From: Escherichia coli
GTDB taxonomy: Bacteria; Pseudomonadota; Gammaproteobacteria; Enterobacterales; Enterobacteriaceae
Direction: 5' to 3' (one strand)
DNA length: 64,000 bases
NCBI RefSeq assembly: GCF_017348835.2
Contig: NZ_CP071375.1
Made by a program: the position numbers and the translations under genes. Every line of letters begins with the position of its first letter. Position 1 is the stretch's first letter. The notes under the pieces are model-generated. The model saw only the letters and a list, made by a program, of their open reading frames with translations. It had not been told where the DNA came from and made no database searches. Positions 1-55,625 of this stretch are shown one piece after another.

Positions 1-798
1 AAGGTCGTAGGGCCAGATAATAGGCTTTGCTCTAATTTTGGTACTAGTTTTGCTGCTCCAATTGTGGCAAGTTTAGCTGCGCATACATGGCAGAGAATAG
101 CCACTAATTCAGACTTTAATGTTTCACCATCATTGATTAAAGCATTATTAATTCATTCCGCTCAATTATCTTCTCCTGATTACTCGCCAAGTGAAAGACG
201 CTATTTGGGAGCGGGAATTCCTAATGAGGTTATTGAGACCTTATATGATAGTGATGATAGGTTTACTCTGATTTTCCAAACATTCTTGGTTCCTGGGGTG
301 AGGTGGAGAAAGGAAAACTATCCCATACCATCGGCACTTATTCAAAATGGAAAATTTAAAGGTGAGATTGTAATTACTGCTGCATATGCACCACCACTAA
401 ACCCTAATGCCGGCAGTGAATATGTTCGCGCGAACGTAGAGCTAAGTTTTGGCTTAATTGAGAATAATACTATAAAAGGAAAAGTGCCTATGGAAGGAGA
501 AAACGGTCAATCTGGATATGAGAGAGCTCAAATTGAGCATGGTGGAAAGTGGTCACCAGTAAAAATTCATCGCAAGGCATTTAATAAAGGAATTACTTCG
601 GGTAACTGGGCTCTTCAGGCTAAAACAACGTTGAGAGCGAATGAACCGGCCTTAATGGAGCCTTTACCTGTAACTATTGTAGTAACTTTAAAATCATTAG
701 ATGGAAACACACAAGTTTATGCTGATGGTGTAAGAGCTTTAAATGCTAATAACTGGGCTCACTATCCATTGCCTGCTCGTGTGCCAGTTTCCGTATAA
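1..798 (+). CDS. S8 subtilisin-like serine peptidase, C-terminal part (5' end lies outside the window)
   Basis: Frame 1 is open from nt 1 and reads KVVGPDNRLCSNFGTSFAAPIVASLAAH; GTSFAAP is the subtilase catalytic-Ser motif. About 235 aa of C-terminal extension follow. The ORF track lists only 64..798. Confidence 0.7.
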   Translation, partial: KVVGPDNRLCSNFGTSFAAPIVASLAAHTWQRIATNSDFNVSPSLIKALLIHSAQLSSPDYSPSERRYLGAGIPNEVIETLYDSDDRFTLIFQTFLVPGVRWRKENYPIPSALIQNGKFKGEIVITAAYAPPLNPNAGSEYVRANVELSFGLIENNTIKGKVPMEGENGQSGYERAQIEHGGKWSPVKIHRKAFNKGITSGNWALQAKTTLRANEPALMEPLPVTIVVTLKSLDGNTQVYADGVRALNANNWAHYPLPARVPVSV

Positions 799-1214: not shown

Positions 1215-1814
1215 ATGGCGCATATACAACTGGTCAAACAAACCTCTTCTGGTTTACTTCTCCCGGCGACGCCGGAGAGTTGCGATTTTCTGCATCAAAT
1301 CAAAATAGGTGAGTGGATACACGCAGACTTTAAGCGTGTGCGTAACTACGCATTCCACAAGCGTTTTTTCAAACTCCTGCAACTGGGATTCGATTACTGG
1401 ACTCCGGTCGGTGGGGCGATCACGCCTCGCGAACGAGAACTGCTGTCTGGTTTCGTGGATTACCTGTGCGAATCAGTTGGTCGGGAACACACATCAGCCC
1501 TGAGTGATGCCGCAGAGCAATACCTTAACACCGTTGCGACTCGTAGAACCCGGGATACGGCGTTGCTAAAGTCGTTTGAGGCTTTCCGCGAGTGGGTAAC
1601 CATTCAGGCCGGATTTTACACCGAGCATATTTATCCGGACGGTAGCCGTGGGCGTCGGGCAAAATCCATCGCTTTTGCGAATATGGACGAAGTCGAGTTT
1701 CAGCAGGTTTATAAATCTGTACTGAATGTGCTGTGGAACTGGATTCTGTTCCGTAAATTCTCCTCTCAGGAGGAAGTTGAAAATGTGGCCGCACAACTAC
1801 TGGAGTTTGCGTAA
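1215..1814 (+). CDS. Lambdoid prophage nin-region protein (DUF1367-like)
   Basis: 199-aa ORF directly upstream of and coupled to the YbcO-like and Q genes; the family assignment is from memory. Confidence 0.5.
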   Translation: MAHIQLVKQTSSGLLLPATPESCDFLHQIKIGEWIHADFKRVRNYAFHKRFFKLLQLGFDYWTPVGGAITPRERELLSGFVDYLCESVGREHTSALSDAAEQYLNTVATRRTRDTALLKSFEAFREWVTIQAGFYTEHIYPDGSRGRRAKSIAFANMDEVEFQQVYKSVLNVLWNWILFRKFSSQEEVENVAAQLLEFA

Positions 1815-2104
1815 TGGTGAATTTACGTAAAGCGGCTAAAGGCCAGATGTGCCAGATCAGAATCCCTGGCTACTGCAATCACAATCCCGAAACCTCTGTG
1901 CTGGCGCATTACAGGCTGGCGGGGACGTGCGGAACAGCGACAAAACCACACGATATGCAGGCGGCGATAGCCTGTAGCTCATGCCACGATCTAATCGACG
2001 GGCGGGTAAAAACCAGCGATTACACCAAAGAAGAATTGCGCCTGATGCATGCTGAAGGGGTTTTTCGCACACAAGAAATCTGGAGAAAGAAAGGTCATTT
2101 ATGA
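1814..2104 (+). CDS. YbcO-like prophage nuclease (DUF1364)
   Basis: 96 aa with the Cys-rich motif CQIRIPGYCNHNPETSVLAH...ACSSCHD, resembling DLP12 YbcO; the start overlaps the upstream stop. Confidence 0.65.
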   Translation: MVNLRKAAKGQMCQIRIPGYCNHNPETSVLAHYRLAGTCGTATKPHDMQAAIACSSCHDLIDGRVKTSDYTKEELRLMHAEGVFRTQEIWRKKGHL

Positions 2105-2643
2105 TTTACCCAACGAATACAGGAAAAAGCGGAGAACACCTTCGCCTCACCACGCTGGAAAGTGTCTGGATTCAGGGAAAACTACGTATGTGGGGGCGCT
2201 GGTCGTATATTGGCGGTGGCAGGTCAGGGAATATGTTCAATCAGTTGTTGGCATCCAAAAAACTGACGAAAACAGCCATTAATGAAGCCCTGCGCAGAAT
2301 GAAAAAAGCGGGAATAGAGAAAGCTGAGCTGGAAGCGTTTTTGCGAGAGATGATCAACGGCAAGCAAAAGAGCTGGCTGGCGCATTGTACTGATGCAGAG
2401 GCGTTATGTATTGATCGAGTCATAAGTGAGGTGCTGGCAGAGCATCCAGGATTGATTTGCATTCTCCGGCAACGCTATGAAGGGCGGGGGATGGCTAAGC
2501 GCAAAATGGCTGAATTGCTAAATGATGCACACCCAGAGTGGTGTTTTAGCACATGCGAAAAACGGATTGCTAATTGGTTAGCTGTTGCTGAGTATGCCCT
2601 ATATATTCCCATGCGTGAATCATTTGCTGAGAAAATGGCTTGA
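2101..2643 (+). CDS. Late-gene antiterminator Q-like protein
   Basis: 180-aa ORF overlapping the ybcO-like stop (ATGA), upstream of a terminator and of a phage-21-type lysis cassette; the call rests mainly on position. Confidence 0.5.
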   Translation: MIYPTNTGKSGEHLRLTTLESVWIQGKLRMWGRWSYIGGGRSGNMFNQLLASKKLTKTAINEALRRMKKAGIEKAELEAFLREMINGKQKSWLAHCTDAEALCIDRVISEVLAEHPGLICILRQRYEGRGMAKRKMAELLNDAHPEWCFSTCEKRIANWLAVAEYALYIPMRESFAEKMA

Positions 2644-2723
2644 TTTCTTACGTATAAACTGCTTCAATTTTGCTATGCTTCGCAAAGCTGTATCGCGAGG
2701 CGGATTGCAGACATGGACATCGT

Positions 2724-2750
2724 AAAAAAACCGCTTAATGCGGTTTTTTT
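2724..2750 (+). terminator. Rho-independent terminator downstream of Q (tR'-like)
   Basis: aaaaaaaccgc-ttaat-gcggttttttt: a short GC stem flanked by an A-run and a T-run. Confidence 0.6.
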
Positions 2751-3628
2751 ACGTCAGGAAAGCAGGGGAGAATGCTGCTAGTTGGGCAACTGGTCTTTCT
2801 GCTCCAAATTATAACAGAGACCAGTTATAGTTTCGGTGCTGTGTTTTTTTTACAATATTGTGATAACACATTGCTGGCGGGAGTTTTGATATTTCTTGGC
2901 AGGGGCTGATGATGCGTTATCCTGATGTCGTCAACTCATATAAAATGAGATGAGAGATCATTGCAGGGTGGTTTGTAATTCGCTGTTTAGCGGGACAATA
3001 TGTTGTCTGATACAAGACACCCGACGCCTCAGATTACTATAATAAAGACGAAGCATCCTTTGTATTGACCAACCGCCTGTTTAGGCGGTTCTTTCTGGGC
3101 TGGTTTATTGTATGCCAAATGATTATTAAAAAGGTTGTGTTAATAACAAAATCCGAAATAATATGCCTGCATATTTTTATCTTGCTTATATTCTGCATAT
3201 TGTGCATAGCAGGCTCATCCCTGCAATCAAAACTGTATGATGAGTATTTTTTGTTTTCCTTTTTTCCAGTCATCTGATGATGACCTGCTTCTTTTTAATC
3301 CGGATCGACATCAGTTTTTTAAGATAATTCCTGCGAGTTATATGCATAAATGCCACAAACTCCGCATTTTATGTGGTTGGGAGTTGCCGGGCGCGCAGTG
3401 AGTTTGCTAAGAAAACTCCTGCATGGTGAATCCCCCTGTGCGGTGGGGTGATACCATTAACCTTTTCTGTCGCCGACAGGTATCACGAACATTTTGTTCA
3501 CCGGGAGGCACCCGGCACCATGCACTTCAATAGATTCTCTCCACATTATGGATATTCTTTCAGAATATCCCACGCAGACTTTGTGTAAATGTTAACAAAT
3601 GTGCGTTTTATTTGATCTGATTCGCTGT

Positions 3629-3658
3629 TTGAGCGTCCAAAACAACGGTATATATAAT
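3629..3658 (+). promoter_or_regulatory. Sigma70-like promoter for the lipoprotein moron
   Basis: TTGAGC (3629-3634), 18-nt spacer, TATAAT (3653-3658), about 30 nt upstream of the 3688 start; SD gagga lies before the ATG. Confidence 0.4.
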
Positions 3659-3687
3659 CCTTTACTATATGACATATGTGAGGAAAA

Positions 3688-4116
3688 ATGGGTTTTCGTA
3701 GCGCATCAATTCTTACGTTGATTATTAGTGGGATTATTATCGGGTGCACTGATGCTGTATCGACAAATTATCATGACCGTACATCATATTACTCCGATAA
3801 AGCAATAGAGACACAGTATGTGAGTTCATCTGAACGTACTTCTGATGTTAGTGAGGATATCCGTCTGTATGCCCATCAAATCAAGAGCGCCATCGAAAAA
3901 CAGTTCGGGGATGCGAGTAAGTATTCAGGAAAAGAGTGTACACTGAGAATGCATATGGCCCCGAATGGCCTTCTACTGGAGGTTAAAAGAGAAAGTGGAG
4001 ACCTCGATTTATGTCGTGAAGCGATGAATGCGATAAAGAATGCTGATATACCTGCCCCCCCTTCGCCGGAAGTATATAAAGTATTTCAAAATGGGGTGCT
4101 GGATTTTAAACCCTGA
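3688..4116 (+). CDS. Outer-membrane lipoprotein with a TolA C-terminal domain III-like domain (moron gene 1)
   Basis: Signal peptide with lipobox IIGC followed by Thr at +2. The C-terminus YAHQIKSAIEKQFGDASKYSGKECTLRMHMAPNGLLLEVKRESGDLDLC...PAPPSPEVYKVFQNGVLDFKP parallels the TolA C-terminus (YAGQIKSAIESKF...GKTCTLRIKLAPDGMLLDIK...PKPPSQAVYEVFKNAPLDFKP, recalled from memory). Confidence 0.75.
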   Translation: MGFRSASILTLIISGIIIGCTDAVSTNYHDRTSYYSDKAIETQYVSSSERTSDVSEDIRLYAHQIKSAIEKQFGDASKYSGKECTLRMHMAPNGLLLEVKRESGDLDLCREAMNAIKNADIPAPPSPEVYKVFQNGVLDFKP

Positions 4117-4266
4117 TATTTATTGTTTTGTAATAAACGGTTTCGGCTTAGGTTTGTTCTGACACAGCTACGGCACTGAGCTAAATTTAGCGGATAGTCA
4201 GCTCTGAGCCAGTGGCGGACGTAACAACTACTATTGCTGAGATTTTAATGGATTGAGGAGCAAGAA

Positions 4267-4662
4267 GTGGGATTAAAGAAAATCGTTATGTTGACTTTTT
4301 GGGTCGGTTTTGTTGCGGGATGCACACCTTTACACCCTTCAGATTGCCACAAAACTACTGCTACAGGTAGTTGCAGTTCAGGACGCTGGGATGATCAGGA
4401 TGAATGGGGGGCGCAAGCGCGGGGAATCAGAGCTGCAATTAATGCCAAACTTGATGAGCCGCATAACTGGAAAGGGAAAAAATGCAGGTTGCATATGGAA
4501 TTCTCTCAGGATGGCACGGCGTTAAAAATATCTACCAGTAACGGTGATAAAGCCTATTGCGAAGCGATAAAGTCCGCAGCTCATAAAGCCAAATTTCCGG
4601 CCTTCAACAATCCGGAAGTCTACAGAGATTTTCAGAAATCTGGCTTTGACATGCGAGGTTAG
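4267..4662 (+). CDS. Second, divergent TolA domain III-like lipoprotein (moron gene 2)
   Basis: GTG start with SD gaggag; signal peptide MGLKKIVMLTFWVGFVAGC (lipobox VAGC, Thr at +2); C-terminal KGKKCRLHMEFSQDGTALKIS...FPAFNNPEVYRDFQ follows the same pattern as gene 1 and TolA-III. Confidence 0.65.
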   Translation: MGLKKIVMLTFWVGFVAGCTPLHPSDCHKTTATGSCSSGRWDDQDEWGAQARGIRAAINAKLDEPHNWKGKKCRLHMEFSQDGTALKISTSNGDKAYCEAIKSAAHKAKFPAFNNPEVYRDFQKSGFDMRG

Positions 4663-4787
4663 CTCTTCAATTACTATATCTCATTCATAGCAAACTGACA
4701 GATTTGATGATGTTCTATATACGAAACCTGTGATGTCAAGTCTGAGCTAATACAAATAAACATAATATCAGAGAAATACATTTTATT

Positions 4788-4811
4788 AGCTCGCTACGGC
4801 GAGCTTTTTAT
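4788..4811 (+). terminator. Rho-independent terminator closing the lipoprotein moron
   Basis: agctcgc-tacg-gcgagct followed by ttttta. Confidence 0.55.
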
Positions 4812-54588: not shown

Positions 54589-54832
54589 AGGATATTTAAA
54601 GAAAACGCCTGTACTAAAACCGACCCGTGGTACAGGCGAAGAATACGGGTCTACATCGGAAGCGCCTATTATATTTATTTGTATGACAAATAAAACCATA
54701 ATCCTTGCCCATACGTCCATCTGGCTTATTTTTAATCAATTCACCCGATCTTTGATCTCATCAACGGTATCAAAATAAACCAGCGTATAACGTTCAAATC
54801 GAACATAAGATTCGATAAACCATGGAGGTTAT

Positions 54833-55077: not shown

Positions 55078-55227
<150 letters not shown>

Positions 55228-55625
55228 AGCCTTTCTCCTTGCCGGATGGCGGGTAAGAGGCTAAGATCTGAATTGCTAGGTTCATTCGTTGGCCTCGGTT
55301 GATAGAAATGTCGGTCGGGGCCTTCGTCTTTCTGATTCCCGGTTAGCCTGAAAACAGAAAGTCTCAGGCACCCGCAGGCATCCTATGAGGTTTCCTTAGG
55401 GACGAAAATAATCACTTCACGAAATTGCGTGCTGTTTTCCAGAATTTTTCGTCATTCGGGTTAGCCAGTTTAACTATTCCTCACTTTCTTCATTCCAATG
55501 GCATTAACCTTCTCTGCAATAATTGTTGTAAAAATGTGACGCAAAGAGGCTTTTAGTCGTAAGTAATTACCGTCAAATGCCGATGACTTTCTATCAGGAG
55601 TAAACCTGGACGAGAGACAACGGTA

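Follow-up and report, generated by a model that had tools for sequence, protein, structure and literature searches.

What occupies the kilobase that separates a prophage antiterminator gene from the first late gene, when no gene is annotated there? We asked this of a 64,000-nucleotide stretch of the Escherichia coli contig NZ_CP071375.1 (assembly GCF_017348835.2), called the window below, which covers the Rac region of a chromosome with a largely intact Rac-like lambdoid prophage. Here a gap of 1,044 bases follows the gene of a Q-like antiterminator of the DUF1133 family. The original prediction, made from the letters alone, had described the gap as a non-coding stretch with stacked hairpins in which the late promoter, the qut site and a short terminated leader RNA of lambdoid phages would sit. 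The comparisons reported here indicate that positions 2640-3687 are probably the late-operon leader of the prophage, composed of a Q-dependent cassette and a series of small-RNA modules that includes a member of the STnc100 family. As such leaders go, the gap is ordinary but well organised (Table 1).

The non-coding character of the gap held up. A total of 445 RefSeq E. coli records contain at least 80% of it, and no coding sequence (CDS) is annotated there in the best 25 of them. Its open reading frames (ORFs) of 70, 78 and 54 amino acids match no Pfam or PHROG family, and their start codons and frames are not preserved at homologous loci. A tRNA or tmRNA in the gap is rejected as well, in keeping with the earlier inspection by eye, since ARAGORN found no tRNA gene in the 64-kb window; Rfam gave no tRNA match either. 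The gap had also been called AT-rich, with only low-quality ORFs, and in this the original prediction was right, GC content falling to 31-36% at 3000-3300 and no credible ORF being present. The remaining 900 bases or so are far from featureless, however, as they hold an STnc100 gene, the relic of another and a conserved module that we call block 3.

Phage records and 5,426 complete E. coli genomes were searched. The gap is nearly unchanged in about 8% of the complete genomes, with 99-100% identity among about 450 of them, E. coli SE11 (NC_011415.1, 1494418-1495461) being one strain with this prophage, and separate parts of it recur independently of each other. The first 59 bases (2644-2702) also follow related Q genes in other phages and prophages, there without the rest of the gap and at 91-100% identity. 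At the far end, 3497-3687 together with the TolA-like genes that follow is present at 100% identity behind a different Q type with tRNA-Ile and tRNA-Arg genes, and further lambdoid prophages have homologues of 2804-2974, 3015-3310 and 3143-3395, with 70-85% identity, after their tRNA arrays. This linkage of the modules and the boundaries between them are observed directly, as are the anatomy, the family match and the base-pair covariation described below. Judged by these recurrences, the gap reads as a mosaic of non-coding modules that assort independently and all lie on the late-operon strand.

The identity of the upstream gene bears on the first of these modules. The Q protein matches PF06576 (E 4e-107) and PHROG 753, ‘anti-termination protein Q-like’ (E 4e-79), and scores 25.1 bits against PF06530, the phage 21 Q family, below the gathering cut-off of 26. 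A profile of five homologues matches the Q21 structures 6JNX/6P18 with an E-value of 1.5e-5, collinear across both halves. On these matches the DUF1133 protein can be taken as a Q-like antiterminator and a distant relative of phage 21 Q; a literature search found no paper mentioning DUF1133. Five loci with a Q of this type were then compared, namely the window, Escherichia phage vB_EcoS-673R7, Rac-SA53, Klebsiella phage 1 LV-2017 and Providencia phage PSTCR8lys, whose Q proteins are 42-96% identical. Across them the -35 of a candidate pR' reads TTGATT, TTGACT or TTGCAA, the -10-like hexamer TTCAAT, TATCTT, TTGAAT or TATAGT, and the intervening 16-17 bases preserve the motif TTAC..A.AAAC. Because conservation of a spacer is unusual in a plain promoter and the Q-binding site of lambda and 21 is located at this place, the window spacer TCTTACGTATAAACTGC (also given as TTACGTATAAAC) is a candidate Q-binding element. 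Eleven bases after the upstream -10 comes a second -10-like element, TG-n-TATGCT, with T1, A2 and T6 of its hexamer preserved in four of the five diverged loci. It could serve as a sigma-dependent pause element, then at about +1 to +5, or be itself the extended -10 of the promoter. The placement of TATGCT relative to the upstream -10 fits the definition of the Q-dependent cassette of phage 21, which comprises a promoter, a Q-binding element, a sigma-dependent pause element and a terminator (10.1101/651190).

The predicted leader RNA would be 63-76 nt long, depending on which of TTCAAT and TATGCT serves as the -10, and would end at the terminator tR'. This is the strong hairpin with a T-run that had been noted from the start, now placed exactly at 2724-2750; together with a small upstream leader hairpin it folds with -24 kcal/mol (z -4.2), which none of 200 shuffles equals. 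The leader is partly conserved across the five loci, and a GC-stem terminator of differing sequence occupies the same position in four of them, Rac-SA53 having only an AT-rich candidate. Since the module travels with the Q type and the positions of its elements are kept across Q proteins of such different identity, the first 110 bases or so after Q fit a Q-specific late promoter, leader and terminator module. The expectation of pR', a qut site and a terminated leader is thereby supported for these bases at the level of sequence comparison; the rest of the gap is taken up by other modules. Two other candidates were discarded here: isrK, for which Rfam gave two sub-threshold matches (about 20 against 50 bits) made up mostly of terminator-hairpin letters, and a sigma-54 promoter at TGGCAGGGGCTGATGATGC, in which the GG-to-GC spacing is off by 4 bases as judged by eye.

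Much in this arrangement is shared with the Q-dependent late cassettes of phage 21, lambda and 82: the position after Q, the candidate promoter, the -10-like repeat about 11 bases past the -10, the conserved spacer at the Q-binding place of lambda and 21, a terminator within about 75 nt, late genes coming next and co-variation of the module with the Q type. The window differs from phage 21 in that its DUF1133 Q is matched at profile level only and under the Pfam cut-off for Q21, and the window shows no evident counterpart of the direct-repeat Q-binding site of Q21. It differs from lambda in its shorter leader, the lambda 6S RNA being 194 nt long; the leader RNA StxS of Stx2 phages is a comparable terminated product.

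The most structured element of the gap, the STnc100 core at 3421-3523, was left out of the hairpins first listed for it. RF02076 (STnc100) of Rfam matches 3391-3577 on the plus strand with 86.6 bits against a gathering score of 47 (E 5e-18, model positions 1-206), and our own model of the core gives the window copy 102.9 bits. Eleven copies of the family were aligned, from the window, four E. coli prophages, a Klebsiella phage and PasD1. Compensatory change is seen at 13 of the 29 pairs of the core, and 95.4% of the cells of the alignment are paired, against 40-47% in slid controls; the covariation score was matched by none of 500 shuffles, and the window sequence itself folds with -45.6 kcal/mol (z -3.7). 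Two hairpins, CCCCC-UGUGCGG-GGGG and CCGGG-AGGCA-CCCGG, are near-invariant in copies that are otherwise about 60% identical. Ahead of the core, the TTG and TA positions of the promoter are invariant or nearly so and stand at a fixed spacing in the eleven copies. The promoter-like site of the window has the same spacing to the first helix as that of PasD1 and a weak match to the consensus. At the other end the window copy has no canonical terminator, in contrast to those copies with GCCCCTC..GAGGGGC-T6.

PasD1 of enteropathogenic E. coli (EPEC) E2348/69 supplies the experimental reference for this family. RNA-seq places it at 1060260-1060432, Northern blots detect it in the lysogen and its stability is Hfq-dependent (PMC8550237); PasD is abundant in uninduced lysogens. 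TTGACT-17-TTAAAA lies upstream of PasD1, and its mapped 5' end falls one base before the closing helix. From this mapped end and the shared promoter positions it follows that the first 30 or so positions of the Rfam STnc100 model (window 3391-3420) may be promoter DNA, not RNA. STnc100 and PasD have been judged to be of common origin, near Q and lysis genes (10.64898/2026.05.13.724894), and RpoD binds STnc100 promoters of Salmonella (PMC10794520). Published work places STnc100 75 nt downstream of stx2 and treats the function of STnc100 and PasD as unresolved.

Relative to STnc100 in general, the window copy is a full-length match with the same five-helix core and invariant hairpins, and it occupies the Q-to-lysis slot, as STnc100 of Stx phages does downstream of stx2; it differs in belonging to a short subtype with a nested third helix and in having no strong GC terminator. 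PasD1 and PasD2 (EPEC E2348/69; EcOnc13 in enterohaemorrhagic E. coli, EHEC) resemble it in promoter spacing, in the 5' end at the closing helix, in the succession of structured domain, CU-rich linker and 3' hairpins, with the PasD seed in the linker, and in the late-gene orientation just upstream of a moron or holin. PasD nevertheless falls below the Rfam STnc100 threshold, with 61 bits on our own model, has a reduced last core hairpin and differs in linker and seed, so that any targets would differ. A literature search found no paper on EcOnc13. We also considered that the invariant five-helix 5' domain might be a dedicated module, one to which RNA polymerase or a protein of phage or host would bind, or which would shield the 5' end or act as a processing signal of late RNA. 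The idea draws on a domain that begins at the first base of the transcript, on two hairpins that stay near-invariant despite the divergence of the copies and on the amplification of the domain, in phages of E. coli and Klebsiella, into tandem arrays that lie on one strand between Q and the lysis genes; it is speculative, and we regard it as doubtful.

In other prophages the family is present as four same-strand copies per late region. Locus L003 carries STnc100 copies at 1317-1530, 3436-3609, 4331-4535 and 4586-4793, all on one strand, and L004 has a tandem array at 3310-4425 of four same-strand copies, an arrangement that returns in L033 and L047; strong GC terminators are present on some of the copies and missing from others. 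The long subtypes place the 3' strand of their third helix within the fourth-helix loop, in a pseudoknot-like manner, the window subtype being nested. Relatives in IMG/VR show an extra STnc100-like match of 61-68 bits on our own model, 4-11 kb upstream of Q and on the opposite strand (L006 530-661(-), L030 1479-1610(-), L031 322-453(-), L043 7611-7742(+)); the corresponding position would fall outside the window here.

A second member of the family has left traces between tR' and block 3. The stretch at 2946-3031 is homologous with L005 3138-3243, which our own core model scores at 45.8 bits (E 3e-12), and eleven IMG/VR loci match the model at 40-49 bits over the same homologous stretch. In the window a 17-base deletion has taken one strand each of two helices and the second helix is degraded; 2946-3031 itself gives no match to our model even with filters off, so the relic is called from its homology with L005 only. 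Behind it lies the ccgcc/ggcgg hairpin that the original prediction had seen at about 3071-3086. This hairpin does not stand out in folding energy (z -1.85; 13 of 200 shuffles as good), and its CCGCC/GGCGG stem is invariant, with a variable loop and T6-T9 tails, in L004, L005 and IMG/VR relatives. Because the order in these relatives is core, linker and then this stem with its T-tail, we take the third hairpin to be the terminator of the STnc100-family relic. The second T-run structure, reported near 2830-2852, is real but weak, its T8 lying at 2844-2851; the hairpin at 2801-2839 folds with -13.7 kcal/mol (z -2.6; 3 of 200 shuffles as good). Homologues of 2801-2851 follow tRNA arrays in loci L004 and L005, with T-runs of lineage-dependent length, and the hairpin may be a back-up terminator.

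Block 3 is the module for which we have no family. A pattern drawn from its conserved sequence retrieved 48 IMG/VR contigs of roughly six sequence types. Between the lineage pairs compared, the body is 61-76% and the terminator 58-81% identical, the flanking spacer and downstream sequence 15-48%, and in L035 block 3 follows unrelated upstream sequence. It contains a small GCAGG/CCTGC hairpin, and its terminator has one compensated pair, C-G to U-A. Rfam has no match to it, a literature search on its invariant 13-mer returned no paper, and the L004 version has no match in sequenced phages. No clear plus-strand sigma-70 promoter was found, and a minus-strand TATAAT-like site is present in some lineages only. 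Several described entities were compared and rejected: PasB, which lies between tail genes; PasA and PasC, whose sequence fragments and positions differ; and DLP12 sequence (the IpeX region), to which neither block 3 nor the gap has any similarity. By its conservation, block 3 is a candidate small RNA unmatched to any described family. Its RNA might arise by read-through from an upstream unit, and it is possibly an undescribed prophage small RNA that shares an AUGAUGA motif with the tails of terminated STnc100 copies.

Taken together, these parts suggest how the leader may work, by analogy with the characterised Q systems and with PasD; promoter use, pausing, Q loading and action, the transcripts, Hfq association and target pairing are all argued from sequence. 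RNA polymerase would start at the promoter overlapping the end of Q and pause at TATGCT. Without Q it would stop at the 2724-2750 terminator and release the leader RNA, and with Q loaded at the pause site it would read through tR' and four later hairpins, so that the TolA-like, lysis and structural genes would be expressed. Each small-RNA unit would have a promoter of its own and be transcribed in the lysogen, STnc100 from a sigma-70 promoter as proposed by analogy with PasD. Its RNA would consist of the five-helix 5' domain and a CU-rich linker pairing with mRNAs, assisted by Hfq if PasD is a guide, and the terminators of the small-RNA units would stop this transcription short of the lysis genes.

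Several observations weigh against this composite reading. The -10 of pR', TTCAAT, is weak, and a consensus promoter scan, a check proposed with the original prediction, did return a site, at 3629-3658, but listed neither TTCAAT, which it missed for want of an A at position 2, nor TATGCT, an alternative candidate for the -10. In the window the -35 shares bases with the stop codon of Q, and coding may explain part of its conservation. The stem of 2801-2839 is not clearly preserved in all lineages, for which reason it was rejected as a conserved structure. The window STnc100 combines a promoter of poor consensus with the lack of a U-tailed terminator, from which weak expression or read-through may follow, and block 3 has no recognisable promoter and one covarying pair only. 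The weak promoter and missing U-tailed terminator of the window STnc100 and the lack of a visible block 3 promoter also speak for an alternative in which neither the STnc100-type elements nor block 3 would be independent small-RNA genes. They would instead act in cis within a single long Q-dependent late transcript, either as stacked back-up terminators or as segments processed from, or stabilising, the late mRNA. All elements have the late-operon orientation, relatives have same-strand four-copy arrays between tRNAs and lysis genes, and the invariant loops and five-helix junction seem too elaborate for a typical Hfq-dependent small RNA. Yet TTG/TA promoter positions precede every copy at fixed spacing, the 5' end of PasD1 lies one base before the first helix, PasD is plentiful before induction and many copies end in a strong terminator; we consider such a cis role unlikely, though it is the main rival reading.

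It is harder still to see the gap as a spacer decaying after recombination and loss of a tRNA or toxin cargo, with tR' alone functional. The second STnc100 copy is visibly decayed, the tail of the relic terminator and the stem of block 3 are weaker than in relatives, the tRNA array of relatives is missing, and the near-identity across about 450 genomes would reflect recent common descent, not selection. Against decay speak the STnc100 core, in which 95% of the pairs persist and whose score is far in excess of the family threshold, and block 3, which stays 61-76% conserved with sharp boundaries and unrelated flanks across lineages. With conserved modules, a family match and covarying pairs in the gap, the suggestion that it might be just degraded spacer fell away, and we judge general decay very improbable. 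Most improbable of all is a small hydrophobic protein encoded in the AT-rich middle, be it a frame of 52-70 amino acids at 3065/3120-3277 or a peptide of about 25-30 as in relatives. The window does have an open hydrophobic frame, an ATG opens a hydrophobic frame of 27-30 codons over the same bases in related block 3 lineages, and ..LQ(S/R)(K/R)LYDE closes the window frame as well as the L004-type frame. However, this ATG is ATA in the window, no Shine-Dalgarno sequence precedes the frame, and one- and two-base indels shift it between lineages and give two different C-terminal frames over identical nucleotides, which is why we read block 3 as non-coding; the missing family matches and the missing CDS in the RefSeq records examined point the same way. 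A late-operon leader made of a Q cassette and small-RNA modules is thus the reading that we retain.

The slot in which this leader lies is known for its cargo. Relatives among Stx, LT-II and other lambdoid phages carry tRNAs for Ile, Arg, Lys, Thr and Gly, a pertussis-like toxin, an esterase and TerB genes after Q, and the notion that tRNA or toxin genes are often inserted here is well founded; the window differs in having neither tRNA nor toxin, its cargo being the two TolA-C-domain lipoprotein genes downstream. In Rac-SA53, with the same Q type, the slot holds pertussis-like toxin genes eplBA (L055 4492-5723), and LT-IIa genes follow the lysis cassette (L055 7514 onward), so the content of the slot is highly variable. 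The TolA-like genes lie between STnc100 and the holin, and after them come a phage-21-type holin, endolysin, spanins and then trkG. The TolA-like pair resembles a moron and might, speculatively, hinder TolA-dependent entry of colicins or filamentous phages. The other above-threshold Rfam matches in the window are IS009, MicC, RydC and sok, and the presence of the last three further along confirms the chromosomal setting.

Table 1. Features of the window, in order of position.
Feature	Positions	Strand	Remarks
iteS (3' part)	64-798		RefSeq: S8-family anti-phage peptidase; just upstream of the prophage nin region
ninB-like DUF1367 gene	1215-1814		
YbcO gene	1814-2104		
Q-like antiterminator gene (DUF1133)	2101-2643	+	180 amino acids; distant relative of phage 21 Q, by profile match
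Candidate pR'	2640-2668	+	-35 TTGATT 2640-2645; 17-base spacer TCTTACGTATAAACTGC; -10 TTCAAT 2663-2668
Gene-free gap	2644-3687		1,044 bases; next gene starts at 3688
Second -10-like element TG-n-TATGCT	2671-2679	+	TATGCT 2674-2679
Short late leader RNA (predicted)	2675-2750	+	ends at tR'
Terminator tR'	2724-2750	+	A7-CCGC-TTAAT-GCGG-T7; two-way terminator shape
AU-rich imperfect hairpin (2801-2839) and T8 (2844-2851)	2801-2851	+	terminator-like
Decayed core of second STnc100-family gene (relic)	2946-3031	+	homology with L005 3138-3243
Relic terminator	3071-3096	+	AACCGCC-TGTTTA-GGCGGTT (3071-3090); tail CTTTCT
Block 3, conserved non-coding module	3143-3298	+	invariant TGTATGATGA (3234-3243); terminal hairpin 3266-3287 and T-run
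Promoter-like site of STnc100 gene (gene about 3384-3613)	3384-3413	+	TTGCCG (3384-3389), 18 bases, TAAGAA (3408-3413); predicted start about 3420
STnc100 5' domain	3421-3523	+	closing helix 3421-3428/3516-3523 around four further helices
STnc100 3' part	3524-3613	+	CU-rich linker 3524-3549; candidate seed UUCUCUCC
STnc100 3' hairpins	3550-3570; 3572-3606	+	first without U-tail; second weak, then UUUAUUU
Promoter-like site TTGAGC, 18 bases, TATAAT	3629-3658	+	before first TolA-like gene; 10/12 consensus matches
Two tandem TolA-C-domain lipoprotein genes	3688-4116; 4267-4662		PF06519; PHROG 5772, function unknown
IS009	10094-10292		223 bits
MicC	16250-16370		
RydC	54599-54662	-	
sok	55222-55373	-	

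The Q cassette as a type of element and STnc100 as an Rfam family in recent papers are known already, and what is new here is modest: a predicted pR' cassette for the DUF1133 Q subfamily, a relic STnc100 copy, a possibly undescribed block 3, and the recognition of the STnc100 core as a strongly covarying five-helix domain starting at +1. In this way an unannotated kilobase present in about 8% of complete E. coli genomes is resolved into named parts, and a concrete late-promoter cassette is proposed for the DUF1133 Q subfamily. The boundary of the Rfam STnc100 model is affected as well, as its 5' end may include promoter DNA. The conserved STnc100 core is the sole part of the gap with real discovery potential. 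More generally, small-RNA genes and their relics appear to accumulate between Q and the lysis genes, and their terminators may double as insulation of the latter.

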